In this document: in pieces, positions 5,538 through 50,687 of the stretch | How the letters are laid out: each line of letters opens with the position of its first letter | How positions within the stretch are numbered: position 1 is the first letter of the stretch | Assembly (NCBI GenBank): GCA_964429935.1 | Contig: CAYSED010000005.1 | Location: 1 to 57,572 of the forward strand | From: an uncultured Hyphomonadaceae bacterium | Lineage (GTDB): Bacteria; Pseudomonadota; Alphaproteobacteria; Caulobacterales; Hyphomonadaceae | Length of the DNA: 57,572 bases | Direction of reading: 5' to 3' | Program-made: the position numbers and the translations under genes | Notes under the pieces: model-generated | What the model saw: the letters and a program-made list of their open reading frames with translations, nothing else | Databases searched by the model: none | Told to the model about the DNA's origin: nothing

Positions 5538-6874
5538 GCGCCCGCCCGCCGACGCGTCTTGAACCGGTCGGTTGTCAGCGGTTCGTGCACGATCTCGTAC
5601 TTCTGCGGGATCTTGTAGGTCTCCAGCCTGCCGGCGAGGTGCTGGCGCACCGCGCTGCGCAGGACCGGCGGGCTGGCCTCCGGGTCGCGCGGCCGGATGC
5701 GGGCGACGACGGCCTGGCCGAGGATCGCGTGCGGCACTCCGTACACGGCCACTTCGGCAATTTCCGCCATGTCCTTGATCGCGTTCTCGACCTCGGCCGG
5801 GAAGACCTTCTGTCCGCCGACATTGATGATGTCGCTGTCGCGCCCGAGAAAGCGGACGTGCTCGCCATCGGCCTCGACCCGGTCGCCGGTCATGAAATAG
5901 CCGTCCTGCGTGAACGGAGACGGCGCGTTCAGATAGCCGACCATGGCGGTGGCCGCCCTGATCTCGAACAGGCCGTCGCGCACCCGCCAGTCATAGCCCG
6001 CCCCGCCGAGCTTCACCCAGGTCGAGGCATTGTCCTTCGACTGCGTCGGCAGCGCGCCGGTCTCGGATGTGCCATACTTCTGGATCAGCCGGACATGCGG
6101 AAAGAGCGCGGCGCATGTCTCGAGCGTCGCGCGCGGCATCATTTCCGAGCCATAGGTGATGATCTTCAGGGAGGAGAGGTCATGCGCCTCATGCGCCCCG
6201 GAGAGGATCAGGAGGTTGAGAAAGCTGGGCGCGGTGGGGAGGACCTCGATGCCATGTTCGGCGATGAGGCGGCAGACCTCGCCGGGAGACCGGCTTGACG
6301 GCAGCACCAGCGTGCTCGTGCCCGCAAGGCTGTAGAACAGCGTGTCGAGCCCGGCGATATGGTCGAACAGGAGGAAAGCGAGCGTGCGCAGGTCCTTGCC
6401 GGGCTTGCGGAATTTTTCAAGCAGCCGCGAGGCGTCGTGGACGACGCCTTTCGATACGCCCGTCGAGCCGGACGAGAACAGGATGATGCCGGCCGATGCG
6501 GACTGCCGCAGCGCGTCATAATGGGCATGCGCGCCGTCATGCGGCAGGCGGTCGACGGTCCCGCCGTCTGCTTCGACGATCCATTGCGCCCGGCCTTCGC
6601 TGGCAAACTCGGCTTGCTTTTCGTAGCTTGTCGGCGCGAGCGGTATCGTCAGCATGCGGCATTTCAGGAGTGCCAGAAGCGCGGCAATGCCCGCAAGCGA
6701 GAAGTCGCCCTTGAGAAGGACGACGGCCCCCGGCGCGATGCCCGCCTGCCTTAGCCTGCCCTCCCACGCGGCGATCGCCCGCATCAGGTCCGCATAGGTG
6801 AACGCCCCGGCGGCACTGACAAGCGCGGTTTTCTCGCCGGCCCCGGCAAAGCGCTGCAGCAGGACATCGATCAT
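5534..6874 (-). CDS. AMP-dependent acyl-CoA/acyl-ACP ligase (ANL superfamily)
   Basis: 446 aa with the AMP-binding motif ILFSSGSTGVSKGVVH, plus GYFMTGDRV and INVGGQKVFPAEVE. Confidence 0.85.
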   Translation of the reverse strand: MIDVLLQRFAGAGEKTALVSAAGAFTYADLMRAIAAWEGRLRQAGIAPGAVVLLKGDFSLAGIAALLALLKCRMLTIPLAPTSYEKQAEFASEGRAQWIVEADGGTVDRLPHDGAHAHYDALRQSASAGIILFSSGSTGVSKGVVHDASRLLEKFRKPGKDLRTLAFLLFDHIAGLDTLFYSLAGTSTLVLPSSRSPGEVCRLIAEHGIEVLPTAPSFLNLLILSGAHEAHDLSSLKIITYGSEMMPRATLETCAALFPHVRLIQKYGTSETGALPTQSKDNASTWVKLGGAGYDWRVRDGLFEIRAATAMVGYLNAPSPFTQDGYFMTGDRVEADGEHVRFLGRDSDIINVGGQKVFPAEVENAIKDMAEIAEVAVYGVPHAILGQAVVARIRPRDPEASPPVLRSAVRQHLAGRLETYKIPQKYEIVHEPLTTDRFKTRRRAGA

Positions 6875-8700: not shown

Positions 8701-9228
8701 TTACGCAAAATCCGGCCAGGCCCGGTCCTTGTCCGATAAGACGGCAGGCTCGAGCGGCCAGTCGATGCCGAAGGCAGGGTCGTCGTGGCGGATGCCGGCC
8801 TCGGCCTCAGGGGCATAATGGGCCGACACGAGATAGCTCACCTCGACATCGTCGGTCAGCGTGATGAAGCCGTGGGCAAAGCCGCGCGGCACATAGAGCT
8901 GGTTCATGTTGGCGGCCGACAGCTCGAAGCCCTGCCATTTCCGGAAGGTCGGGCTTTCGGGCCGCACGTCGATGATGACATCGTGGATCGCCCCGCGCAG
9001 GCAGCGGATCAGTTTCACTTCAGCATGTGGCGCGCGCTGCATGTGCATGCCGCGGAGCGTGCCCTTGTGGGCCGATGTCGACATGTTCTGCTGCACGAAG
9101 CGCGTTTCGAGGCCTGCAGCGGCAAATTCGCGCTCGCAGAACGTGCGGGCAAAGAAGCCGCGCTCGTCGCCGCGCCGCTCGAGCTCGATCAGCCGCGCAT
9201 CGGCGAGGCCGGTTTGATGGATCTTCAT
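8701..9228 (-). CDS. rfbC: dTDP-4-dehydrorhamnose 3,5-epimerase family (NDP-sugar 3,5-epimerase)
   Basis: 175 aa with GTLRGMHMQ, KLIRCLRGAIHDVIIDVR and YVPRGFAHGF. Confidence 0.9.
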   Translation of the reverse strand: MKIHQTGLADARLIELERRGDERGFFARTFCEREFAAAGLETRFVQQNMSTSAHKGTLRGMHMQRAPHAEVKLIRCLRGAIHDVIIDVRPESPTFRKWQGFELSAANMNQLYVPRGFAHGFITLTDDVEVSYLVSAHYAPEAEAGIRHDDPAFGIDWPLEPAVLSDKDRAWPDFA

Positions 9229-10169
9229 GGCGTGTCACCTTTCGGAAGGGGCAGGAAGCCCTTGAGCTGGGCAAGCGTCAGCGAGGTCCGCAGGGCGTGG
9301 CGCAGGCGCTTGCCCCGTGTCGTGCCGGCTGCGGCATTGACGGAAGGCCAGTAGGGCGTGTGCTTCAGGTAGCGGAAATACAGCCCGGCCAGGGGATGCC
9401 AGGCATCGGGAAGCCAGGGCTTGAAGGCTTCGGTATAGTGAACGATTTTCGGCGTTCCCCGCGCCCGCAGGCGCTCCGGCGTGGTGAAGCTCGGCGCGCT
9501 GCCGAGATGGACGAGCATCCGGCGCTGCACGTTCCAGCGCGCGTCGAGGCGGGCCCACTGGCCCCACAGCAGAAGGTTCAGCGCATCCTGGTCGCCCCAG
9601 GGAAAATCGTCCCATCTCTCCCCGAGCAGGCCGAGGGCGGTGTCGAACAGCCCCCGCGCGCGGATCTCTTCGAGGTCGAGCACGAGGACCCCGGCATTGA
9701 GATAGCCGAGATCGGCCGGTTCGAGGTCCCATTTCGCCGCAAAGTCTGCCGCGCTGATGCCGCCGTCATGTACCGCGCCGACCGGAGCGCCGCCAAGGTC
9801 GGCCTGCCAGAGCTCCCGCAGGTCGCCGAGGACGACGAGGTCGGAATCGAGATAAATTGCCCGGCGCGCTCCGGCCGGAGCAAAGCCCGGAATGGCAAAG
9901 CGGTAATAGGTCGCCCGGCTGATATAGTCGCGGGTCACGAAGCCGAGCACGCGGCTGTCGCCGATCCGGCACCACTGGAACGCCTGTCCGGGGGCCGCCG
10001 CGGCAATCTTCGCCTGCTCCTCGTCGGGCAGCCCGTCATGGATCACCATGAACCGGAAACGCGCGCCGGGCGCATTGGCGACGACCGACGCGATCACGGT
10101 CGCAAGGTGCGGCGCATAGGCAAGGTCGACCCCGAAGGCGACGAGAATCTCTTCGTCAGTCATGGTCAT
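9225..10169 (-). CDS. Glycosyltransferase family 8
   Basis: YYRFAIPGF, IYLDSDLVVLGDLRELW (DxD) and YLNAGVLVLDL. Start taken at ATG 10169 (MTMTDEEILVAFGVD), preceded by AAGGA. Confidence 0.8.
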   Translation of the reverse strand: MTMTDEEILVAFGVDLAYAPHLATVIASVVANAPGARFRFMVIHDGLPDEEQAKIAAAAPGQAFQWCRIGDSRVLGFVTRDYISRATYYRFAIPGFAPAGARRAIYLDSDLVVLGDLRELWQADLGGAPVGAVHDGGISAADFAAKWDLEPADLGYLNAGVLVLDLEEIRARGLFDTALGLLGERWDDFPWGDQDALNLLLWGQWARLDARWNVQRRMLVHLGSAPSFTTPERLRARGTPKIVHYTEAFKPWLPDAWHPLAGLYFRYLKHTPYWPSVNAAAGTTRGKRLRHALRTSLTLAQLKGFLPLPKGDTP

Positions 10170-18681: not shown

Positions 18682-18698
18682 CTGGAGCGGGTACACGG
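18682..18698. repeat. Distal att direct repeat CTGGAGCGGGTACACGG (copy of the tRNA-Gly 3' end)
   Basis: It is identical to 28682-28698, and the flanking bases differ on both sides. Confidence 0.85.
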
Positions 18699-19032: not shown

Positions 19033-19069
19033 AAAAAAGTGCCCCCGTCTGGTAGCGCAGAACGGGGGC
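19033..19069 (-). terminator. Intrinsic terminator-like hairpin for a leftward transcript
   Basis: GCCCCCGT (19041-19048) pairs with ACGGGGGC (19062-19069) across a 13-nt loop. Read on the minus strand it is followed by AC plus TTTTTT (19038-19033). Confidence 0.45.
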
Positions 19070-19095
19070 GTGACCACTCGCAGTTGGAGATTAGA

Positions 19096-19197
19096 ATGAT
19101 CGGTATCGTTCTAGCGAGAAAGCTTTTTTCATTCAATAGCCTCTCTCAGCGATCATTCCTTGTGACGATTCGATTAGCTTGCGACGTCCGGGAATGA
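19096..19197 (+). CDS. Candidate 33-codon upstream ORF translationally coupled to the ABC exporter
   Basis: GGAGA (19086-19090) lies 5 nt before the ATG. The peptide is MIGIVLARKLFSFNSLSQRSFLVTIRLACDVRE. Its TGA overlaps the exporter ATG (ATGA at 19194-19197). Confidence 0.25.
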   Translation: MIGIVLARKLFSFNSLSQRSFLVTIRLACDVRE

Positions 19198-21410
19198 GTC
19201 TGTCAATTCTGAACCTAACCGGCTTTCGCCGCCTGCCATTGCTGCGGCAGGCCGAAGCGGCGGAATGTGGCCTGGCCTGCGTCGGCATGTTGGCAGGCTT
19301 TCACGGCCACCAGACCGATCTGGCCAGCCTGCGCCGTGATTTCCCGATTTCGCTCAAGGGCGCGACACTGAGGGACGTGATCGAGATAGCGGCCCAGATG
19401 AAGCTTGGCGCGCGGGCTCTCAGGTGCGAGGTCGAGGAGCTGCGCGAGCTCAGGCTGCCGGCGATCCTGCATTGGGACATGAGCCATTTTGTGGTCTTGA
19501 AGCAGGTGACCCGGGACCGGGTCGTGCTTCATGATCCTGCGCGCGGCAGGGTTGATGTACCCCTGAGCGAGATCGGCGAGCACTTCACCGGCGTTGCACT
19601 GGAACTTGCACCCGCCTCCGGTTTCCAGAAGAAATCCGAGCGCAAGCTGATCAAGCTGACCAGCCTTGTGAAGATTGACAGCGCAGGCTGGAAAGCTGTC
19701 GCCCAGGGACTGGCACTGTCGCTGTTCCTGCAGGTCTTCGTCCTCCTCAGCCCCTACTACATGCAGCTCGTCATAGACGAGGCAATCCTCAAGGGCGACC
19801 TTTCGCTTCTCACGGCCGTGGCCGTCGGATTTGCTGGTCTCAAGCTGTTTGAGGCGATCACGACCGTTCTGCGCGGGCTCGTGTTTCAGTTCCTGTCTAA
19901 CATTGTCGCGTTCGACATGGAGGCCAGCCTCTTCCATCATCTGACGCGTCTGCCACTGTCTTACTTTCACAGGCGTCACATCGGCGACATCCAGCAGCGC
20001 TTCCAGTCGCTCGGACCCATCCGCGATCTTGTCGTCAACGGTGCGATTGCCGCCCTGATCGATGGCGTCCTTGCGGTATTTGTCGGCGCGATCCTTTTTG
20101 CCTATGACGCGCTGCTCGGCACGGTCGTCGTCGGTGTCATCATCTTCTACGGCATCTTGCGCTTTGCATTCCTCGAACTGTCCAAACGCCTGTCGGGCGA
20201 TCTTCTCGTCGCTGATGCCAAGGAGAATACCAAGTTCCTCGAAACCCTGCGGGCGATGCAGACGGTCAAGGTTGCAGGCATCGAGTCCGAACGCGAAATA
20301 CTCTGGCGCAATCTCGCGGCCCGGACGCTGAACGCCAATATCCGGATCGGCAATGTCAATATCGGCTATGGCGCGATCAGCCAGACGCTGATGGGACTGT
20401 CGAATATCGCCATTGTCTACCTCGCTGCCCAGGCAGCCATACAAGGCAACATGACAATCGGCATGATCACGGCGTTCATGGCCTACAAGGGCCAGTTCGA
20501 AGGCAAGCTGATGGCCCTCCTCGAACAATATGTGCAGCTCAAGCTACTCGACGTGCATCTGGCCCGCGTGGCCGACATTGCGCTCGCCGAGCCTGAAAAA
20601 GGCCTGGCAACACCTGCCATCGGCCGCGACTTTCGGGGCGAGGTCGAGCTGCGGCAGGTCATGTTTCGCTATGCGCCGTTCGAGCCCATGATCCTCAAGG
20701 GGGCGAACCTGAAGATCGAACCGGGCGAGTTCGTTGCCCTTGCCGCTCCGTCAGGCGAGGGCAAATCGACGCTGCTTCGCCTGATCCTCGGCCTTTATGA
20801 GCCGGTCAGCGGCCAGATCCTTTATGACGGACTGCCCGCGACGACCTGGGGCCTTGGCGCTCTGCGCCGCCAGATGGGCGTCGTCATGCAGGACGATACG
20901 CTTCTGGCCGGTTCGATCGAGGAGAACATATCCCTGTTCGATGACAAGCCGGACAATGAGCGCATCCGGTGGGCGGCCAAACTGGCTGCAATCCATGACG
21001 ATATCGAACAGATGCCCATGGCCTATCGCTCGCTGGTCGGCGACATGGGCACAAGCCTTTCCGGGGGCCAGCAGCAGCGCGTCATGCTCGCCAGGGCGCT
21101 TTACCGGAAGCCGAAGCTGCTTGTGATGGACGAGGGGACGAGCCAGCTCGACATTGAGACCGAGAAGCGGATCAATGCAGCGCTGAAGGATCTGGATATC
21201 ACGCGAATCGCTGCGGCTCATCGGCCTGACACGCTCGCGGCAGCGGACCGGATTGTACATGTGCGAGGCGGTCAACTTGGAGAGGTTCGGCCAAAGCCTG
21301 TTGCTCAAGGGGCAGTTCCAGCCCTGCTATCAACAAGTTTGACGGCGTCAAAAGCAAGAGGACGACTTCTCGCACCGATTGACACAGATATTTTTGACAC
21401 CGAGGATTGA
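19194..21410 (+). CDS. Bacteriocin-type ABC exporter with N-terminal C39 cysteine peptidase domain (CvaB/CdzA-like)
   Basis: The C39 catalytic Cys lies in AAECGLACVGM and the His in HFVVLKQV. There are six TM segments, Walker A APSGEGKST, signature LSGGQQQRVMLARAL and Walker B LLVMDEGTSQLD. Start at ATG 19194; the track uses TTG 19179. Confidence 0.9.
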   Translation: MSLSILNLTGFRRLPLLRQAEAAECGLACVGMLAGFHGHQTDLASLRRDFPISLKGATLRDVIEIAAQMKLGARALRCEVEELRELRLPAILHWDMSHFVVLKQVTRDRVVLHDPARGRVDVPLSEIGEHFTGVALELAPASGFQKKSERKLIKLTSLVKIDSAGWKAVAQGLALSLFLQVFVLLSPYYMQLVIDEAILKGDLSLLTAVAVGFAGLKLFEAITTVLRGLVFQFLSNIVAFDMEASLFHHLTRLPLSYFHRRHIGDIQQRFQSLGPIRDLVVNGAIAALIDGVLAVFVGAILFAYDALLGTVVVGVIIFYGILRFAFLELSKRLSGDLLVADAKENTKFLETLRAMQTVKVAGIESEREILWRNLAARTLNANIRIGNVNIGYGAISQTLMGLSNIAIVYLAAQAAIQGNMTIGMITAFMAYKGQFEGKLMALLEQYVQLKLLDVHLARVADIALAEPEKGLATPAIGRDFRGEVELRQVMFRYAPFEPMILKGANLKIEPGEFVALAAPSGEGKSTLLRLILGLYEPVSGQILYDGLPATTWGLGALRRQMGVVMQDDTLLAGSIEENISLFDDKPDNERIRWAAKLAAIHDDIEQMPMAYRSLVGDMGTSLSGGQQQRVMLARALYRKPKLLVMDEGTSQLDIETEKRINAALKDLDITRIAAAHRPDTLAAADRIVHVRGGQLGEVRPKPVAQGAVPALLSTSLTASKARGRLLAPIDTDIFDTED

Positions 21411-21554
21411 CCCGCTCGATCCGCTGTCCTTAACATCACGTCATGGCTGAAGAGTTTAGTCATCACGCAGGTTTGGGCATTCCAGTTCTTATTGGTCAGG
21501 CGCGTAGTGGCGCATCCTATAAATTGCGTGCAACTCGCAGAACGGAGACTAACA

Positions 21555-22430
21555 ATGCGGGAGCTAAAGGCATTTGAACTTGTGCAGGTAGGTGGCGGAT
21601 TTGATCCATTTACTGGGGAACGAATTTTAGACTCTGTTTTTGCTACGCTGAGAGGGGAAGGTGGAGGTGGGGCCAACGGTTTTTCGGGATTTGGGTTTGG
21701 AGCATTTGGACTTGGAGGCGCAAGTAGTCCGCTCGATAACCAGCCCGATGATGGCACGGGTTTTTCCCTGATCGAGATCGACGACGAAACCTACGTCGAC
21801 ACGCAACAAGGTCTTTCTGACGTCCAATTGATAGAGCTCGATTCCGCATTATCGAACCTACCTTCGGATGTGGTTGATGCAGCTTTGGCTTGGACGCAGG
21901 CCTTGAGTGCGTATGTCGAGAGTCTCGCAATACGAGCTGGACAGATGGGAGGGACGGCTGCTCAGTATGCAGAGGGCTTAGGCGGACTGGCAAAGGGCTT
22001 GGGAGCCCTTGCTGTTGCGCTTGAGGGGTACTCCATCTATCAATCCATGCAAGCAAATGGCGCTACTCCTGAAAACGTTTCGGCCGCGATTGGGCTGATC
22101 GCGGGCGTTGCTGCGGGTTGGGCCACTGGCGCCGCTGTTGGAGGAGTTTTTGGGGGGCCCGCTGGAGCACTTGTAGGCGCGTTCGTTGGGGCAGTTGTTG
22201 GTGCCGTTGGTCCTCTCGTATACGAGACAGTGTCGCAAAATGTTTCCGATTTCACGGCCTTCAACGAGGAGTTCAATAATTTCTTCGATCCGAATAGCGA
22301 CGGGGATGTTGATCTGGACCGAGTCCTTTCGCTCTTCACCGATACATCTACGTTCAATGATGGCAATCCGAACAACAATCCTGGTGGCGGTTGGGAAGAG
22401 CCAGATACGGGATTCTATTCGGAGCCATAG
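21555..22430 (+). CDS. Double-glycine-leader secreted protein (bacteriocin-like, glycine-zipper), 291 aa
   Basis: GGAGA lies 6 nt upstream of ATG 21555. The leader MRELKAFELVQVGGG fits the GG-leader consensus. The mature part contains the Gly-rich run GEGGGGANGFSGFGFGAFGLGG, the hydrophobic zipper IGLIAGVAAGWATGAAVGGVFGGPAGALVGAFVGAVVGAVG and an acidic Asn/Asp tail. Confidence 0.7.
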   Translation: MRELKAFELVQVGGGFDPFTGERILDSVFATLRGEGGGGANGFSGFGFGAFGLGGASSPLDNQPDDGTGFSLIEIDDETYVDTQQGLSDVQLIELDSALSNLPSDVVDAALAWTQALSAYVESLAIRAGQMGGTAAQYAEGLGGLAKGLGALAVALEGYSIYQSMQANGATPENVSAAIGLIAGVAAGWATGAAVGGVFGGPAGALVGAFVGAVVGAVGPLVYETVSQNVSDFTAFNEEFNNFFDPNSDGDVDLDRVLSLFTDTSTFNDGNPNNNPGGGWEEPDTGFYSEP

Positions 22431-22450
22431 TATTTTATAGCGAACACCTC

Positions 22451-22476
22451 AGGTGCGCTACGAAAGTGGCGCACCT
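22451..22476. terminator. Hairpin between convergent genes (possible bidirectional terminator)
   Basis: AGGTGCGC (22451-22458) pairs with GCGCACCT (22469-22476), followed by TCTTC. It lies between the bacteriocin-like gene and the minus-strand operon. Confidence 0.45.
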
Positions 22477-22514
22477 TCTTCGCTCTCAAGAACTACGAAA
22501 TTTAGCTTAAGCTC

Positions 22515-22805
22515 TTATTCTTCATGGCCTGATGCGACGAGCTGCTCAAGGCTTAAGCCGACTAAAATGATCGAAACCAGTGCCACGGCGAATGCGGATG
22601 CTAAGATCGGCTGATTTTGAAAACGAAGCATTGGAATGAAAGCAATAACCGAAAATCCAAATATTAAAGCAGCAAACCTTTCAAGCGGCTGCCTGTAAGT
22701 TATCCGATTTTTGCATGACGGACAATTAAATACAGCGCCGTGGCGACGTTTAATTTTGCCACCTAGAGGCATAGCCCAACTACACTTTGGACATTTTGCG
22801 ACCAT
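22515..22805 (-). CDS. Small zinc-ribbon protein with two C-terminal TM helices (candidate immunity/accessory protein)
   Basis: 96 aa with CPKC...17 aa...CPSC, then FAALIFGFSVIAFIPML and ILASAFAVALVSIILVGLSL. It is the last gene of the HlyD operon. Confidence 0.55.
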   Translation of the reverse strand: MVAKCPKCSWAMPLGGKIKRRHGAVFNCPSCKNRITYRQPLERFAALIFGFSVIAFIPMLRFQNQPILASAFAVALVSIILVGLSLEQLVASGHEE

Positions 22806-22855
22806 TTTGGATGCTCCTGATAAATATTGGGACTAAACGCATAAATTTACACCTT

Positions 22856-24796
22856 TTAAGGTGTGGCGCATTCAATTAAATCAGTTATCGAAGTTGCGCG
22901 TTGCGGATAGTTAATAGTAGTGTGGCCCTGTTCTGGAATTACTTGAATTCTTGTACAATCGCGTTTTTCCAATGTCTCAAAGAAGTCTTCTACAAAGTCA
23001 CTGCGGATCAATTCGTCCCTCTCTCCCGCAAAAATCCAAATCGGCGTTTCTCGAGCTTTTCTTTGTACTGACCTGAGACTCGGTTCAATCATTGAATTGG
23101 CTGGCGCCCTGATCTTGGGTTCTCGGGAGCCCTGATCGATCTCACAGTGCTCCTCTGCATAGGCCAACATCGTAAGCCGGTTCGACGCCTCATTGGGTGA
23201 TCGATAAAAGCGGTTTCTGCTGCGTTGATCTGCAGTTCGTTCTTGAAGCATGTGGCAGACGGAAAGCAATGGTGCATCAAGTGCTACAAAGGAGATTTCT
23301 TTGTCCGTAGCTGCCAGACTAGCTGCAACGGCAAAGCCGCCAAAACTGCCCCCGCTTAGGCCTATGGGTTTGTCGGGTAGAAGTTCATGAGCAAGCTCAA
23401 TAAATTCAGATGTCTCAGCGCTTAAGTCTTCGAATGAAAAGTTGTAGATTCGTCGCGTATGCTCTCCACCGTACCGTGTTGAGCCGCTAATTTCCGGCAT
23501 GATGACGCGATAATTTTTCTCAAGCCATGGTGCTACAAGTTGTTCATCGGTCCTGGATGCGGAGGCGGCGGGGCCACCATGAAAATGGATGAGAGTTCCT
23601 TCAACCTCACCTGGCGGCTCGAATATCCAATAGGGAGTTTCACCTGCGGACGTCCTGAGCGTGGCCCAGCTCCGTGGCGCACGGTTTATTTCAGCATTGT
23701 CGTAAAGATGATGAAGTTGAAGCTCGCCGTCGCGCCAGACCAGTAAGGCGTTTTTCCCTGCCGTGGTTTCAAGCAAACCAATTGCGAAATCGTCACTCAC
23801 ATCGACATGCACGTCCTGCAAAATGACAGCATTGTCAGGCAACTCTGCTCGTAGCTTGTTAATTAGCCTTTCTGTCATTGGGGATGTATCCAGGACATCA
23901 AATGGTGGCAGTACATTTATAGAACCACCGAACTCTACGCCTGGTAGTGAAATCATGGACCGATGCGATGTCGCGAGGTCGGACAGCTTTTTCACTGAGG
24001 TCACGATGCCTGTGTCCTGTTTCGAGAATTCGAGCAGATATCGGATCGAATTGTCAGCTTGAGCGACTGCAAAACCCGACGAACCAGCTGAGACATGTGT
24101 CTCTGTTCGGAGGGCCGCAATTGAAGCTCCAAGGGGAAAGGTTTCAATTCCTGAAGCCTCTTCGGTATGTACGTTGAGGTCGAACTGATCAGAGCTGGAC
24201 GGTGAGATCCAAGCTATTACTTGAGCATTTGACGCCCAAGACCGAAATACCGTGCTTAAGGCTGGAATCGGAGGACCCGGCGAGTTGGTATCGATGTTCC
24301 AACCAGCAAGCTGGCGGGGCGGTTGGCCTTCAAGATACTGGTCCACATGTATAGGTATATAGGCGTAGTTGCGGTCGATGCTAAACACACCGGCGGCAGT
24401 TGTTGATCGGTAGGACTTATCTGCCGACTCAGTCCATAAGCCGACCCGCTCTATGGTCCCGGTCTGTACGTCGATACGAAAGACCTCCCGGCTATTCGAA
24501 TAGGCGAGCAATTCGTCCTCGTGAATGAACCCCTGCAAAAGAATTCTGTCTGGGAGCGGGATTTCATGGATGACCTTAGCGGCTCGATCAATAAGTAGAA
24601 TGCCATCGCTGAACTCTAGCGCAAACATATTGCCTGACGGCGATGCGACGAGTTGTTCGATATTCGTGAAGTCGTTCGTCTCGATTGAGCGGCCTGTCAG
24701 AGGCATCGTCGAGCCGGGGCCCTTCTCGCATGCTCCGGTAACAGCAATCAGACTTAAGATTATGCTGTATCTGAGAGCACATTTTACGACAAACAT
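22856..24796 (-). CDS. Lipoprotein with N-terminal beta-propeller-like region and C-terminal S9 (prolyl oligopeptidase-type) alpha/beta-hydrolase domain
   Basis: Signal/lipobox SLIAVTGAC, nucleophile elbow GLSGGSFGGF, acid IFAGERDELI and His IPEQGHTT, in the order Ser-Asp-His. Confidence 0.75.
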   Translation of the reverse strand: MFVVKCALRYSIILSLIAVTGACEKGPGSTMPLTGRSIETNDFTNIEQLVASPSGNMFALEFSDGILLIDRAAKVIHEIPLPDRILLQGFIHEDELLAYSNSREVFRIDVQTGTIERVGLWTESADKSYRSTTAAGVFSIDRNYAYIPIHVDQYLEGQPPRQLAGWNIDTNSPGPPIPALSTVFRSWASNAQVIAWISPSSSDQFDLNVHTEEASGIETFPLGASIAALRTETHVSAGSSGFAVAQADNSIRYLLEFSKQDTGIVTSVKKLSDLATSHRSMISLPGVEFGGSINVLPPFDVLDTSPMTERLINKLRAELPDNAVILQDVHVDVSDDFAIGLLETTAGKNALLVWRDGELQLHHLYDNAEINRAPRSWATLRTSAGETPYWIFEPPGEVEGTLIHFHGGPAASASRTDEQLVAPWLEKNYRVIMPEISGSTRYGGEHTRRIYNFSFEDLSAETSEFIELAHELLPDKPIGLSGGSFGGFAVAASLAATDKEISFVALDAPLLSVCHMLQERTADQRSRNRFYRSPNEASNRLTMLAYAEEHCEIDQGSREPKIRAPANSMIEPSLRSVQRKARETPIWIFAGERDELIRSDFVEDFFETLEKRDCTRIQVIPEQGHTTINYPQRATSITDLIECATP

Positions 24797-24832
24797 CCTA
24801 GAACCTATTGGACTTGATACGGTGCGCGCGAC

Positions 24833-26077
24833 TTAGCGCAGTGAAAGCAACGGCTCCAGGAGCCACTCGACGAGTTTTCGATCCTCAAGCACGATATCGG
24901 CAGAAAGCTCCATTCCAGACTGAAGGGCGATGTCTTGGCCAAAGGCGCGAACCGACTGGGCGGCGAGTGCTACCTCCACCTTGTACACAGGTTCCGGGTT
25001 TTGCGACAAAATACCCAGTTCTTGCGGGAACAGAGTCGTCTCCGATACGCGGGCAACATATCCTTCAGCTACGCCAAATTTCTGATAGGGCAGTGCGTCG
25101 TATAGGAGCTTTACTGGCTTTCCTAGCTCGACAAAGGCTATGGCGCGCGAGGGCACATGCAACTCAGCAATAAGCTCTGCACCAGGGGGCCCGATCGCAA
25201 GTAGCGGGATCGTTGGGTCGGCACGCTCTCCGACACGAGCTTGAAGCGCCGTTACCTTTCCACTCATCGGGGCTGTAACAAGGTGCATTGCACTCGCCTC
25301 AGTTTGGCGCATCTGAGAATCGAGCTGAGCCAGCCTTTGGCCGATATCAGCTTGATCGCGGTTCAAGTCGGAACGAATTCTGCGCTTCTCGATCACTAGG
25401 CGGCTTTGCGCTGCTTCGGCGGCACTGATCTGAGCTTCAAGCTGCAAGCGGGACTGGTCGAGTACCGCGACATCGTCGGTACGCTGCATATGCTCGGCGG
25501 CTGTGATTAACCCTTCATCCAAAAACCGCTCAGTATCAGTCGCACGGTGGCGAGCTGTCTGAAGGCGCTGAACGAGCACAGCAAGCTGCGCTCTGCCCTC
25601 AGATTCCTGTCGCGCGGCATCTGCAACTCTCTGGGCAAGATCATCCTCGGCAATTTGCGCCGCAGCCCTAAGCTCGCTTAGTCGGTCATTAAGCAGAGTC
25701 TGTTCAAGTGACAAGGCCGACAAAGCATTGTCGCTCAGGCTGTCTCCATCATCCAAAATCCGGTCACTTGCGATAGTTGCTAGCGGTGTGCCGGCTTCAA
25801 CAATGGCTCCGTCGGCGATGAGGACTTGCTTCACGATACCGGACTCAACGGCGTAAACCCGTGCCTCTGAGCCGTCCGGCCGTAGCTTGCCGCGTACGGT
25901 TTCTTTGCGGGCGAAGTTCGCGGTGAACAGGAATACGAGGAGCGCAGCGATGAACAGTCCGATCAACCAGGTGATGCGTGACCAAGCCGGAGGAACGACG
26001 CCGGTAGGGCGTCCGTAAAGCTCGTTGCTAGCCGTATGCGCCTCCAGAACCTCTTCCCTGAATAGTCCGTCAGCCAT
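24833..26077 (-). CDS. HlyD-family membrane fusion protein (CvaA/CdzB-like T1SS adaptor)
   Basis: N-terminal TM ITWLIGLFIAALLVFLF, lipoyl-like GIVKQVLIADGAIVEAGTPLATI, a long coiled coil and C-terminal VKLLYDALPYQKFGVAEGYV. Start at ATG 26077 (MADGLFREE) with AGGAA upstream. Confidence 0.85.
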   Translation of the reverse strand: MADGLFREEVLEAHTASNELYGRPTGVVPPAWSRITWLIGLFIAALLVFLFTANFARKETVRGKLRPDGSEARVYAVESGIVKQVLIADGAIVEAGTPLATIASDRILDDGDSLSDNALSALSLEQTLLNDRLSELRAAAQIAEDDLAQRVADAARQESEGRAQLAVLVQRLQTARHRATDTERFLDEGLITAAEHMQRTDDVAVLDQSRLQLEAQISAAEAAQSRLVIEKRRIRSDLNRDQADIGQRLAQLDSQMRQTEASAMHLVTAPMSGKVTALQARVGERADPTIPLLAIGPPGAELIAELHVPSRAIAFVELGKPVKLLYDALPYQKFGVAEGYVARVSETTLFPQELGILSQNPEPVYKVEVALAAQSVRAFGQDIALQSGMELSADIVLEDRKLVEWLLEPLLSLR

Positions 26078-26478
26078 CGTTGCTTTATTCCTGTCATCAA
26101 CTTTTATTAGATAGCCCATAGAAGGCTGCAAAGTAAATTCTTTCAATTTCGGATCGGACAGTACCGCCATCTAAGCGATCCTCACGAGCGCATGAAGGCA
26201 TGACAGGAAGGTCGGGTTTAGTGAGGGCAAGATTAAAGGGTTGGCACCCTCGGCCCCTTAACCCCTTGTCTGCACATCGCTTTTTTGGTGCCCTGTGCAC
26301 AGGCATGTGGCGTACGGGTATTGGGAGGTTCCCCGGTGCCGCTGGGTGGCGCGTACGCCAGGGTTTGCAAGGCCTTGCGCGGGCTTGCAAGATGTTGCGG
26401 GGAATACCGCATAAACCAACTGGTCCGTACCCGCCCGGCGATGCAGTCTGGGAGCCTCGATCAGGAGGCCCAACCCAA

Positions 26479-26862
26479 GTGAAACCCCGCGTCCATCTCC
26501 GGCTCGATCCTGCCCTGCTCGGCCAGCTTGAGCGCACCGCGCGCCAGGGCAAGACGACGAAGACCGCCCTGCTGGAAGCGGCGCTCCGGCTCTATTTCGA
26601 CCCGGCCCGCAACCTGCCTCTGGAGGAGCGCCTGTTCCGGCGGCTCGAATGGCGGGGCAACCTTCAGGTTGAGGCGCTGATGCAGTTTGTCCTTTACTGG
26701 CTCACCCATACCGAAACCCTGATCGAGGGCGACCGCGACTTTGCCCATGCGCGCGGGCGGCGGCGCATGGACTATTTCATCGACCAGGTGGCAAGCCGGC
26801 TCGGCAACCGGCGCACGCTGGCGCAGGAATCCTGGCGCTGGGAAGGGCCAAAGCTCGAATAG
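26479..26862 (+). CDS. Ribbon-helix-helix (CopG-like) protein
   Basis: GTG 26479 follows AGGAGG (26463-26468). VKPRVHLRLDPALLGQLERTARQGKTTKTALLEAALRLYF has the beta-alpha-alpha pattern of RHH regulators. Confidence 0.5.
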   Translation: MKPRVHLRLDPALLGQLERTARQGKTTKTALLEAALRLYFDPARNLPLEERLFRRLEWRGNLQVEALMQFVLYWLTHTETLIEGDRDFAHARGRRRMDYFIDQVASRLGNRRTLAQESWRWEGPKLE

Positions 26863-26931
26863 GCAGGCCTTGCGAGCAATTGCACGCAAACCGACTGGGC
26901 GGGGCTGCCGTCCTCTGGGACACTCTTGCGC

Positions 26932-27252
26932 ATGTCCCGTCCTTCCGATGCCGAGATTGAACACGCCATCCGGACCGTCGCCTCCCTGATAGACCGGTTC
27001 GGCGATGCCTACTGGCCGGTGCTCGACATGCTGGAGGCTGAACTTGCTGCGCGCCGCGCCAGGGCCGGAAAGCTCGCTGCCTGGCTCGGGAACAGTTCGC
27101 TGCGAGAGCCATCAGGCCGAATGGCAGGGCCTGCCATTCGGCCACGTCCAGCCTCCTTGCCTGTGTCCGGGCGCGTCAAGGGTCGCGTTCGCGACCGCAC
27201 GGCGGCCCGGCCCTTGACCCGCCCGGACACAGGCGACACGCAACGCGGCTAG
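26932..27252 (+). CDS. Hypothetical protein of the integration module (3' part uncertain, reads through palindromes)
   Basis: MSRPSDAEIEHAIRTVASLIDRFGDAYWPVLDMLEAELAARRARAGKL looks protein-like. The C-terminal third is encoded by inverted repeats that translate similarly on both strands. Confidence 0.3.
   Translation: MSRPSDAEIEHAIRTVASLIDRFGDAYWPVLDMLEAELAARRARAGKLAAWLGNSSLREPSGRMAGPAIRPRPASLPVSGRVKGRVRDRTAARPLTRPDTGDTQRG
27115..27143. repeat. Perfect 29-nt palindrome GGCCGAATGGCAGG-G-CCTGCCATTCGGCC
   Basis: 14-nt arms read directly from the sequence. Confidence 0.8.
27160..27233. repeat. Large inverted repeat (23-nt arms, 22/23 complementary, 28-nt spacer)
   Basis: CCTGTGTCCGGGCGCGTCAAGGG (27160-27182) against CCCTTGACCCGCCCGGACACAGG (27211-27233). 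Confidence 0.8.
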
Positions 27253-27359: not shown

Positions 27360-28496
27360 CTAAGCGAACATATCCTTCGGGAACGGGTGCGCAATCTTGA
27401 GCAGTTCGTCGCGTCGCCAGGCAAGCGAGCCGCCATCGCCATAGGCAGGCCGGTTCGTCGCATGGCCCATCAGCAGGCAGCGCAGGCCATAGTCGAGCCC
27501 GGCCTCCAGCATGCGCTTCTCGAACGCGTGCCGGAACGAATAGATGACATGCCTGTCTGTCGGAAACAGGCCGCGATTGCGGAACGCCTTGACGAGGGAC
27601 TGGGAGAGAAGGTCGTTCCGGTCGCGATAATGCGGGAACCCGTTCCTTGCCCCTTTCATCGCTTCCAGCGACACCCCGACCAGCGGAATGTCGCGGATCG
27701 AGGATCCGGTCTTGATCTCGCGGCCCTTGTGCGGCCGGATGCGGATATGCGGCACGTCCGCATCAAGGCAGATATCGTCCGCCAGCAGGTTGGCAATCTC
27801 GCTCGGCCGACAGCCTGTCTCGATCAGGACATAGACGATGCGCCGGGCCTCGTCCTTGATGCCGGCCAGGGCGTCCGGCACGAGGATCTTGTCGCGCACC
27901 CAGGCATCCGGGAAGGGCGGCGTCTCGGCGAGGCTCGCTTCCCGGAACGAGAGATTGCGGAACGGGTTCGGGCGGTCCTCCTCGCCGATGTGCCGGAAAT
28001 ACTCGCGCAGGAGCTTCCGCAGGTTGCCAAGATCGCGATTGGCCGTGTTGGCCCCTCTTGCCGCAACGCCATTCTTCGGCTTCAGGCGACCGGCCCACCA
28101 ATTGTAGAATTCGAGTGCGTCCGCGCGGGTGATCGCCTCGACGGGCTTGTCGCCGACAAGCTCGATGAAATAGGCAATCGCCCGCTGCTTGGTCTTGCGC
28201 CAGAGCCGCTTCTGGTTCGGCGACTTGTTGAGAAGCTCGCCAATCGCGATCCGCTCGCAATAGGTCTCGAAGGCTTCCGAGAGGAGCGTGGCGGGCCGCT
28301 GCACGCCGCCGAGCAGGGCATCGGCTTCGGCCTTGACCGCTAGCCTTGCATCCCCGGTATCGACCCGCTCGACCGCGCTGATGCGCTTCATCACTTCCTC
28401 AAGGGCAATCAGCGCGGGAAACTCATCGGCTGGCGCATAGGAGAAGCCGCGCGAGACGGCCCGCGCGACGGCCGAGCGATAGCGCCGTTCGGCCAT
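27360..28496 (-). CDS. int: Tyrosine-type site-specific integrase
   Basis: 378 aa with ETGCRPSEIANL (catalytic Arg region), YSFRHAFEKRM and LLMGHATNRPAYGDGG (His/Tyr). It is adjacent to the tRNA-Gly 3' end. Confidence 0.9.
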   Translation of the reverse strand: MAERRYRSAVARAVSRGFSYAPADEFPALIALEEVMKRISAVERVDTGDARLAVKAEADALLGGVQRPATLLSEAFETYCERIAIGELLNKSPNQKRLWRKTKQRAIAYFIELVGDKPVEAITRADALEFYNWWAGRLKPKNGVAARGANTANRDLGNLRKLLREYFRHIGEEDRPNPFRNLSFREASLAETPPFPDAWVRDKILVPDALAGIKDEARRIVYVLIETGCRPSEIANLLADDICLDADVPHIRIRPHKGREIKTGSSIRDIPLVGVSLEAMKGARNGFPHYRDRNDLLSQSLVKAFRNRGLFPTDRHVIYSFRHAFEKRMLEAGLDYGLRCLLMGHATNRPAYGDGGSLAWRRDELLKIAHPFPKDMFA

Positions 28497-28681: not shown

Positions 28682-28698
28682 CTGGAGCGGGTACACGG
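28682..28698. repeat. tRNA-proximal att direct repeat CTGGAGCGGGTACACGG
   Basis: Identical to 18682-18698. It covers the last 16 nt of tRNA-Gly plus 1 nt. Confidence 0.85.
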
Positions 28699-28756
28699 GA
28701 TCGAACCGAGATCGGTAGCTTGGAAGGCTACTGCATTACCATTATGCTATACCCGC
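28683..28756 (-). tRNA. glyT: tRNA-Gly (anticodon UCC)
   Basis: The reverse complement GCGGGTATAGCATAATGGTAATGCAGTAGCCTTCCAAGCTACCGATCTCGGTTCGATCCCGTGTACCCGCTCCA folds as a cloverleaf. Stems are acceptor 7 bp, D 4 bp and anticodon 5 bp, with loop CTTCCAA, T-loop TTCGATC and an encoded CCA. There is one U-U mismatch in the T stem. Confidence 0.9.
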
Positions 28757-50120: not shown

Positions 50121-50687
50121 CTACAAATGTTTCCAGAAGACGACTTTGTCGGCTCCTGCTCCGTAGAACTCCCGGATGCGGGCCTCCTCGATATAACCGT
50201 TCTTGCGATAGAACTCGCGTGTCCGTCCGAATTCGGGCGTTCCCATCGTTTCCACCAATAGAATGCGCTCGCTTTGCCCGGCGAGATAAGCTTCGAGATA
50301 TGCCATCATTCTTGCACCGTGGCCTTGCCCTTGGCTCGGCGGGCTTACCCCGATGGCAAGCAAGTTCCAGGTGCCGTCGGTCATGCGTTCGGGTTCACAG
50401 AAACAGAATGAAATGACATCTCCCCCAATGTCGCCAACGAACCAGATGTCGCGGGTTGAACGGGTAAGATAGCCATCAATCATGGCTTCGAGCATGTCGG
50501 AGGGAAACAACTCAGTTTCGTCAGCGATGGTCGCGATGACGGGGATGTCCCGTCCTTCGGCGAGGCGGATGTTCAAGTATTGTTTCAATGTCTTGGACTT
50601 TCGATAAGGCCAATAGGCAGTGCCGCTCTGCGGCACGGTCAAACTGGCAAGAGATTGCCTGGAAATTGTGGAATGAATGCCGGACAT
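50121..50687 (-). CDS. GNAT-family N-acetyltransferase
   Basis: The acetyl-CoA motif lies in LLAIGVSPPSQGQGHGARMMAYLE. The gene is visibly AT-richer than its neighbours. Confidence 0.75.
   Translation of the reverse strand: MSGIHSTISRQSLASLTVPQSGTAYWPYRKSKTLKQYLNIRLAEGRDIPVIATIADETELFPSDMLEAMIDGYLTRSTRDIWFVGDIGGDVISFCFCEPERMTDGTWNLLAIGVSPPSQGQGHGARMMAYLEAYLAGQSERILLVETMGTPEFGRTREFYRKNGYIEEARIREFYGAGADKVVFWKHL

Follow-up and report, generated by a model that had tools for sequence, protein, structure and literature searches.

A genomic island in an uncultured Hyphomonadaceae bacterium carries a leader-dependent type I secretion module for a predicted membrane-inserting toxin

The DNA analyzed here, positions 1 to 57,572 of contig CAYSED010000005.1 from an uncultured Hyphomonadaceae bacterium (GenBank assembly GCA_964429935.1; hereafter the window, meaning the whole 57,572-nucleotide stretch), contains a 10-kb integrative island at a tRNA-Gly gene. 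The island carries a peptidase-containing ABC transporter (PCAT) with its HlyD-family adaptor, a 291-residue double-glycine protein, a small Zn-ribbon membrane protein and an S9-like lipoprotein. Our analyses make it reasonably probable that these genes constitute a self-contained antagonism module for the leader-dependent type I export of a membrane-inserting toxin, with the Zn-ribbon protein serving for immunity and the S9-like protein as an accessory, the cargo genes filling a polymorphic slot between the exporter genes. A preliminary description of this DNA had placed two convergent operons in an AT-richer island cargo, and this arrangement holds: the five genes were found at the coordinates given below, in DNA whose GC content falls from about 0.67 to 0.48–0.60 across 19–26 kb, inside an element that has 17-nt repeats and an integrase gene.

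The predicted exported protoxin (21555–22430, plus strand) begins MRELKAFELVQVGGG. Its residues 1–15 form a double-glycine leader ending in VGGG, which is followed by an acidic Gly/Phe-rich stretch with a weak TonB-box-like motif (DSVFATLRG, residues 26–34), a helical core at about residues 95–232 and an acidic tail of 59 residues. The core ends in a hydrophobic Gly/Ala hairpin (residues 175–227) with a GGP turn at residues 200–202, which splits the GxxxG runs at residues 176–209. The net charge of the protein is about −31, and the product after leader cleavage is predicted to have about 276 residues and a mass of about 28 kDa. The 291-residue protein is the only double-glycine open reading frame (ORF) of the island, in agreement with the single substrate of the preliminary description; its size, which had been regarded as unusual, is not unique, as sister loci carry cargo of 131–309 residues. 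It passes the threshold of no curated family in Pfam or NCBIfam.

Relatives of the 291-residue protein are few. When 1.8 billion cluster representatives were searched exhaustively with HMMER, 22 matches were obtained, and the relatives proper number only three, P0003, P0007 and P0009. A word-indexed search with the protein returned only itself, and a metagenome scan with the toxin alignment gave no match. The two full-length relatives, P0003 (267 residues) and P0007 (320 residues), both begin MRELT..E…VSG[GA], and the leader pattern MREL..E…V.GG is kept in these two and in the cargo of the sister loci; P0009 (250 residues) has the core without the double-glycine leader. In the same library, the core was also found fused to a WXG100 or WXG100-like N-terminal domain in the actinobacterial proteins P0008, P0011 and P0019 (E 2e-5 to 4e-4), the domain being assigned by Pfam in P0008 and by eye in P0011 and P0019. 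The pattern common to all is GLG.LG…GY.IYDD followed by a Gly-rich hairpin. Type VII polymorphic toxins are built in this way, with an N-terminal WXG100 domain, and WXG100- or LXG-fused toxins of type VII secretion, such as Staphylococcus aureus TspA, depolarize membranes. The window shares the core with this class, as represented by the three actinobacterial proteins, and differs from it in immunity proteins and in delivery, which here would rely on type I secretion of a protein with a double-glycine leader. The P0019 gene stands in a type VII-style toxin/immunity arrangement (L092, 692–2765), after a gene for a small protein of 101 residues and before one for a multi-transmembrane protein of 221 residues.

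The strongest database similarities of the core are to pore-forming colicins. They fall on residues 139–218 (21969–22208, plus strand), a segment composed of an LAKGLG…GY.IY helix and the Gly/Ala hairpin with its GGP turn, and they emerge from PDB, Pfam and hhalign comparisons of the family profile. When the four-member profile was run against 177,635 PDB sequences, the top four matches were colicin Ib (7.5e-6), pyocin S5 (1.2e-3), colicin E1 (0.028) and colicin Ia (0.08), in alignments spanning both the pre-hairpin helix (FSKAFGFTGKVIDRYDV versus LAKGLGALAVALEGYSIY) and the hairpin. Pyocin S5 is also the first match of the single 291-residue sequence, and among Pfam models the colicin pore-forming domain (PF01024) ranks first. 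Alignment of the family by hhalign with seven colicin pore domains from plasmids gave a probability of 73% and an E-value of 3e-5.

Several results weigh against this kinship. The match to PF01024 has an E-value of 0.021 and a score of 15.1 bits, below the cut-off of 23.4 bits. A broader alignment of the core weakens the colicin signal instead of strengthening it: the glycine zipper of a phage tape-measure protein is also picked up, and the hhalign probability falls to 41%. In the reciprocal search of 11,025 sequences with the seven-colicin profile, the window protein was not recovered and its relatives had E-values of 2–6, though three family members were placed, without significance, within the top nine. 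Both the core and the whole 291-residue protein are strongly acidic, while colicin pore domains are typically basic, and the AlphaFold2 model of the protein (pLDDT 41) is too poor for a fold search. Taken with these results, a relationship of the core to pore-forming colicins is probable but unproven, and we lean towards it only slightly. A membrane-inserting, depolarizing toxin would remain the indicated activity with or without colicin kinship.

The preliminary description had compared the locus with the Caulobacter CdzABCDI system. The parallel stands insofar as both are alphaproteobacterial type I secretion modules of bacteriocin-like character with a Gly-zipper protein, a G[G/A/S] leader (VGGG in the window) and a small transmembrane immunity protein or candidate. 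Pursued further, it would make the 291-residue protein an amyloid-like glycine-zipper bacteriocin, one that remains aggregated at the surface of the producer and acts in contact-dependent killing, with the S9-like and Zn-ribbon proteins as accessories for anchoring or immunity. The same kind of exporter, the leader ending in GG, the GxxxG runs and the weak matches of the toxin relatives to Pfam glycine-zipper models speak for such a bacteriocin, as does the use of type I secretion and a small transmembrane immunity protein by Cdz systems of Caulobacterales relatives, systems that are often horizontally acquired (PMC5380434). However, Cdz-like proteins have been defined as having 60–151 residues, a G[G/A/S] leader, one or two zippers that Pro or charged residues flank but do not interrupt, and a C-terminus that is short and polar (PMC5380434), whereas the window protein has 291 residues, a zipper broken by a GGP turn of the kind typical of helical hairpins, and its 59-residue tail. 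The LAKGLG…GY.IY helix ahead of the hairpin matches colicin domains and not bare zippers. In addition, the Cdz toxin consists of two proteins, CdzC (86 residues) and CdzD (84 residues), and its immunity protein CdzI has three transmembrane helices (PMC5380434); CdzI has no Zn-ribbon, and Cdz loci have no peptidase lipoprotein. We therefore regard a Cdz-type bacteriocin as improbable, and the core appears to resemble the helix 6–9 region of pore-forming colicins more than a bare Cdz-type zipper.

Support for the toxin reading also comes from the gene that follows. The 96-residue protein encoded at 22515–22805 (minus strand), convergent to the 291-residue protein gene and 84 bp past its stop, combines a Zn-ribbon (CPKC…CPSC) with two predicted inner-membrane helices (residues 39–64 and 62–94) and has a weak match to TIGR04104. 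An identical copy (100%) on contig L001 is likewise convergent. In L002, a 106-residue CPKC…CPHC two-helix protein is encoded directly after P0003, and in L093 a 121-residue CPNC…CPEC two-helix protein directly after P0009. When the Zn-ribbon proteins of the window, L002 and L093 were aligned, four Cys residues were invariant, and those of the window and L093 also have the pattern AFIP.(L/V)RF…IILVG in common. The Zn-ribbon protein is thus syntenic with the toxin family in three independent lineages, and for this reason it is likely to be the cognate immunity protein. The convergent geometry of the window recurs in the loci for colicins Ib, K, E1 and B, where the immunity gene likewise comes straight after that of the toxin, on the opposite strand. 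No homolog of the Zn-ribbon protein was found in 80 related PCAT loci. The preliminary description had named it as the only immunity candidate; the CxxC motifs and the two helices agree with that account, to which the conserved synteny adds more than had been claimed.

The genome of the window has no place among the GTDB representatives. The closest ABC proteins, at 71–76% identity, belong to Henriciella, Parvularcula and other marine Pseudomonadota metagenome-assembled genomes. In the sister loci L004–L008, the ABC protein is 71–76% and the HlyD adaptor 49–51% identical to the window, the convergent layout of ABC and HlyD genes is kept, and the cargo in between is unrelated: 131–149-residue MREL…GG proteins, small transmembrane proteins, lipoproteins, a protein with two DTG motifs and a Fic gene. 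Double-glycine cargo of 177–309 residues occurs in other alphaproteobacterial loci. Marine alphaproteobacterial exporters of this clade share a polymorphic slot for cargo between convergent ABC and HlyD genes, and the module of the window is one of its alleles. Among the cargo genes, the Fic/DOC-domain gene (Pfam E 8e-12) lies inside the Parvularcula slot at L007 6434–7231 (minus strand). The two-DTG protein, a secreted protein of 393 residues with a weak PDZ match, all of it below Pfam thresholds, is encoded at L004 9713–10894 and L006 12861–14042. The Henriciella-type loci also encode 77-residue double-glycine peptides (MRDIKHDELDLVGGG…) just upstream of the HlyD gene (L004 12684–12917, L005 14936–15169 and L006 15797–16030, minus strand), of which the window has no equivalent.

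Otherwise unrelated cargo proteins carry a motif of the form xTVxVxGTR or GEIIVxxxR about 5–25 residues past the cleavage site, which suggests a shared uptake or trafficking signal. These TonB-box-like motifs, directly after the leader, read ETVHVYGTR, DTVHVRGTR, DKVIVTGKR, NTVVGVGTR, GEIIVTAYR and GEIIVHGSR, and the cargo genes concerned are located at L002 626–1429, L003 509–1471, L007 5110–5553, L008 12453–12872, L010 5987–6520 and L031 12615–12986. A regular expression derived from the cargo, run over 1.3 million residues, recovered, besides those cargo proteins, just one unrelated ORF (L057) and, in a genuine TonB-dependent receptor, the position of the TonB box. Two points count against applying this signal to the window: the expression was fitted to the cargo set, and the motif is degenerate in the window protein (DSVFATLRG).

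With the cargo slot and the linked membrane proteins in view, one may ask whether the 291-residue protein is a toxin at all. It might instead be an exported structural, adhesive or signalling protein, with the membrane protein and the hydrolase taking part in sensing or turnover. The absence of any curated toxin family above threshold is compatible with such a role, and so are the high acidity and the low-complexity regions of the protein. A tightly linked small membrane partner in three lineages argues otherwise, as do the occurrence of the core in WXG100-fused proteins of polymorphic-toxin architecture, the polymorphic cargo slot of the sister loci, which is typical of antagonism loci, and the ranking of colicin pore domains first among the database similarities. 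We consider a non-toxin role very unlikely, and a membrane-inserting toxin remains our preferred reading.

The exporter itself is, by its domain composition, an ordinary PCAT/HlyD type I secretion pair. The ABC protein (19194–21410, plus strand; 738 residues) has C39 peptidase, transmembrane and ATPase domains (PF03412, C39, E 1e-32; PF00664, ABC_membrane, 9e-27; PF00005, ABC_tran, 1e-30). Its ORF may start at 19179 or 19194, and the ATG at 19194 agrees with the starts in relatives. The preliminary description held that the C39 domain keeps its catalytic residues, and alignment with PCAT1 (4RY2, E 7e-91) bears this out, the Cys of ECGLAC and the His of HFVVL being matched to DCGAAC and HFVVI. 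The best NCBIfam match of the ABC protein is the NHLP bacteriocin exporter, under its cut-off. The adaptor gene (24833–26077, minus strand) encodes 414 residues when read from M32, with an N-terminal transmembrane segment at residues 61–89 (PF13437, HlyD_3, 2e-13; TIGR01843, 4e-39). Its ORF reaches 26170; the start is probably M32, at position 26077, on the basis of alignment with relatives, the adaptors of L004–L008 starting MSSDLFREEAL. As had been stated before, the outer-membrane component is not encoded: the island has no unassigned ORF large enough for a TolC-type channel.

An unusual component of the locus is the 646-residue lipoprotein (22856–24796, minus strand), which consists of an N-terminal part of about 390 residues, predicted to be beta-rich, and a C-terminal S9-like alpha/beta-hydrolase. 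A hydrophobic segment at residues 1–24 contains the signal …LIAVTGA-C and a lipobox, MFVVKCALRYSIILSLIAVTGA-C23, the latter a pattern match only. In Pfam, residues about 397–629 match Hydrolase_4 (43.8 bits), Abhydrolase_1 (32.4 bits) and Peptidase_S9 (PF00326; 29.2 bits against a cut-off of 22.6), all above cut-off. The motifs HGGP (406–409), GSTRYG and GGSFGG with Ser484 are present, and Asp594 and His625 are read from the sequence as their partners. PDB matches are weak and mostly to S9 peptidases, with GGSFGG aligned to GGSYGG of the S9 peptidase 8WT1, and HGGP and GSTRYG to the acylaminoacyl peptidase 1VE6. In S9 peptidases an N-terminal beta-propeller gates the active site; no Pfam repeat was detected in the N-terminal part of the window protein.

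This protein is rare. Its only homolog in 5.8e9 clusters is P0002 (94%), encoded on L001, a 4-kb Logan contig with the gene order of the window. A metagenome scan with the 646-residue protein gave no match, nor did a word-indexed search with the lipoprotein fragment of L003, and homologs of the S9-like lipoprotein were absent from the 80 related PCAT loci. The L003 fragment comes from a gene that follows P0007 and encodes a lipoprotein of at least 434 residues, whose end aligns to the start of the window hydrolase domain (HGGP…PWLE junction). In the S9-like gene, the window (23987–24796) and L001 (1491–2300) differ over the first 270 codons by a synonymous divergence (dS) of 0.33, compared with 0.011 elsewhere in the 4-kb overlap, and the dN/dS of the gene is 0.2, indicating purifying selection. 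These values speak against diversifying selection at the N-terminus and indicate a recombination tract, implying that other alleles exist in the population.

The assignment as a peptidase, and the importance of the lipoprotein for the system, are tempered by three observations. S33- and lipase-type hydrolases match the 646-residue protein as well as or better than S9 peptidases in both Pfam and PDB; since their scores are similar, peptidase activity is likely but not certain, and a non-peptidase esterase is possible. The beta-rich prediction for the N-terminal part derives from an AlphaFold2 model that, with a pLDDT of 33, is unusable. The gene is absent beside the toxin relatives in L002 and L093, being seen in two of four lineages, and is thus an accessory that the family can dispense with. 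The preliminary description had presented an S9 lipoprotein within the adaptor operon; the above-threshold S9 match and the lipobox sustain that identification, and the protein has proved to be lineage-specific.

What the lipoprotein would do may be answered in two ways. It could be a maturation enzyme that frees the hydrophobic core of an exported protoxin by removing the acidic extension at its N- and/or C-terminus. The long acidic flanks of the core, with several Pro residues at domain borders, fit this proposal, as do the S9-like gene directly 3′ of the toxin gene in L003 and the secreted protease-like proteins (double DTG, weak PDZ) encoded beside the cargo in L004 and L006. Prolyl peptidases are known to process lanthipeptide or propionicin precursors. 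On the other hand, type I export bypasses the periplasm, so that a maturation enzyme would have to be a surface-exposed lipoprotein; the toxin relatives in L002 and L093 have no S9-like gene nearby; and S9 enzymes usually act on short peptides. Maturation is accordingly a minority option in our assessment. The other role is degradative self-protection. Since the periplasm is bypassed in one-step type I export, a peptidase facing it would encounter the toxin chiefly when the toxin re-enters, and we prefer, as the most speculative step of our proposal, a back-up degradation of re-imported toxin to maturation.

On the basis of these analyses, we propose the following mechanism. The C39-ABC protein would recognize the MRELKAFELVQVGG-G leader and cleave it by its Cys/His peptidase, an activity predicted from domains that are present. 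A TolC-type channel of the host, together with the HlyD adaptor, would carry the acidic product out of the cell. The TonB-box-like motif after the leader, clear in relatives and weak in the window, suggests a TonB-dependent uptake over the target outer membrane. From the periplasm, the amphipathic helices and the Gly/Ala-rich hairpin may enter the target inner membrane and dissipate its potential, as the pore-forming colicins do. In the producer, the Zn-ribbon protein, with its ribbon in the cytoplasm and two helices in the membrane, may block the hairpin inside the membrane, as its synteny and topology suggest.

Upstream of the exporter gene lies a conserved hairpin (19041–19069, plus strand; stems GCCCCCGU…ACGGGGGC, loop containing UGGUAGCGCA), followed by a GGAGA Shine–Dalgarno-like box (19076–19095). 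The hairpin precedes the ABC gene in all seven loci compared (the window and L004–L009), with stems that differ yet pair, that is, covary; its folding z-scores range from −3.1 to −4.8. The loop reads YUG-GUGAAG-CAR in the relatives and UGGUAGCGCA in the window, and a CTGCAkkTGGAGAT box lies 3′ of the hairpin. A second copy stands upstream of the cargo genes in four loci, L004–L007, the two copies of L004 being at about 6700–6760 and 9215–9300. The hairpin may be a shared regulatory leader. It has no Rfam match, tRNA being the sole Rfam match obtained, and promoter and terminator scans gave nothing above shuffled sequences. A sigma-54 promoter in the hairpin loop was rejected for its wrong spacing. 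In the same region, the preliminary description had proposed a possible upstream ORF. A 33-codon ORF does exist (19096–19197, plus strand), its stop overlapping with the start of the ABC gene in the letters ATGA, and the box ACTCGCAG..GGAGA..AATG precedes both its ATG and that of the toxin gene. However, relatives have at this site an unrelated MWRCxCD… mini-ORF or stops. The coding status of the ORF is doubtful, and a conserved leader peptide is discarded, the structured 5′ element being what is conserved.

The boundaries of the island are well defined. An exact 17-nt direct repeat (CTGGAGCGGGTACACGG) occurs at 18682–18698 and 28682–28698, a spacing of exactly 10,000 bp. The left, attL-like copy coincides with the drop in GC content, and the right copy lies in the 3′ end of the tRNA-Gly(UCC) gene that serves as the integration target (28683–28756, minus strand; ARAGORN, and Rfam tRNA at 66.5 bits). 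Adjoining this attachment site is the tyrosine recombinase gene of the island (27360–28496, minus strand; Pfam Phage_integrase E 1e-5, 25.9 bits against a cut-off of 27.1). Between the adaptor operon and the integrase gene (26200–27252) lie two ORFs that are candidates for regulator or excision factors. The first (26200–26862, plus strand), divergent from the adaptor operon, has a CopG-like ribbon-helix-helix motif at residues 97–132 (Pfam RHH_1 E 8.6e-4, just under the cut-off) and is a possible island regulator; the second encodes 108 residues. The island DNA has no plasmid match, and neither the ORF map nor Pfam revealed a lysis gene in the island. Outside the island, the window has a further GC dip to 0.555 at 50121–50687, over a 188-residue minus-strand ORF that looks by eye like an acetyltransferase, between HflC-like and DegP-like genes.

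Compared with known systems, the module is nearest in its machinery to colicin V-type and class II microcins (CvaAB–TolC, CvaC and Cvi) and to PCAT1, having likewise a C39-ABC protein, a HlyD adaptor, a double-glycine leader, a small two-helix immunity candidate and the need for a host channel. The mature peptides of class II microcins are below about 10 kDa, whereas the window cargo, about 28 kDa after cleavage, has long acidic flanks around a core of several helices. The window further differs from microcin systems in the Zn-ribbon of the immunity candidate, the S9-like lipoprotein in the adaptor operon and the convergent ABC and adaptor genes around a swappable cargo. To the pore-forming colicins and pyocin S5 (Ia, Ib, E1, K and B; PF01024), it is similar in the pre-hairpin helix and hairpin, the convergent downstream immunity gene and a possible TonB-box-like motif. 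However, the window protein is acidic and about half as large as the smallest colicins, the match covers no more than the C-terminal half of the pore domain and stays below curated thresholds, and the immunity candidate is unrelated in architecture. Pore-forming colicins have no signal or leader and are released by an SOS-induced lysis lipoprotein, while the window protein has a double-glycine leader as well as a type I secretion system; no lysis gene accompanies it.

In our database searches, with their limited literature coverage, the accessory set of the window had no counterpart in any described system, and an earlier description is possible. The preliminary description had likewise found no match, and the absence of S9-like and Zn-ribbon homologs from all 80 related PCAT loci is consistent with this, as far as databases reach. 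What appears to be new is the combination of a leader-dependent export route for what may be a core of colicin type, a Zn-ribbon immunity family and a peptidase lipoprotein; the exporter and bacteriocin warfare as such are already known. Taken jointly, these features could describe a class that bridges microcins and colicins: a colicin-type pore-former of about 28 kDa with a double-glycine leader, exported by a PCAT and not by lysis, entering targets by way of a TonB box next to the leader, countered by a new Zn-ribbon two-helix immunity family and, as a second and enzymatic layer, by an S9 lipoprotein that shreds re-imported toxin, and belonging to a polymorphic cargo-slot system of marine alphaproteobacteria with a shared structured 5′ leader. 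The full set of these features is doubtful, and we put it forward tentatively.

Should the core be a pore domain of colicin type, leader-dependent type I secretion would be able to deliver colicin-like killing modules, blurring the divide between microcins and colicins. Polymorphic-toxin logic would then extend to a route outside the 2012 survey of such toxins, which lists eight delivery routes, type I secretion not among them (PMC3482391). The Zn-ribbon two-helix protein would represent a new immunity family, and the presence of an S9 peptidase lipoprotein within a bacteriocin locus suggests that immunity is partly enzymatic or that the toxin matures outside the cell. The 10-kb island with its defined ends makes the whole module compact and easily cloned, and the swappable cargo slot offers a route to new toxin/immunity pairs in marine alphaproteobacteria.

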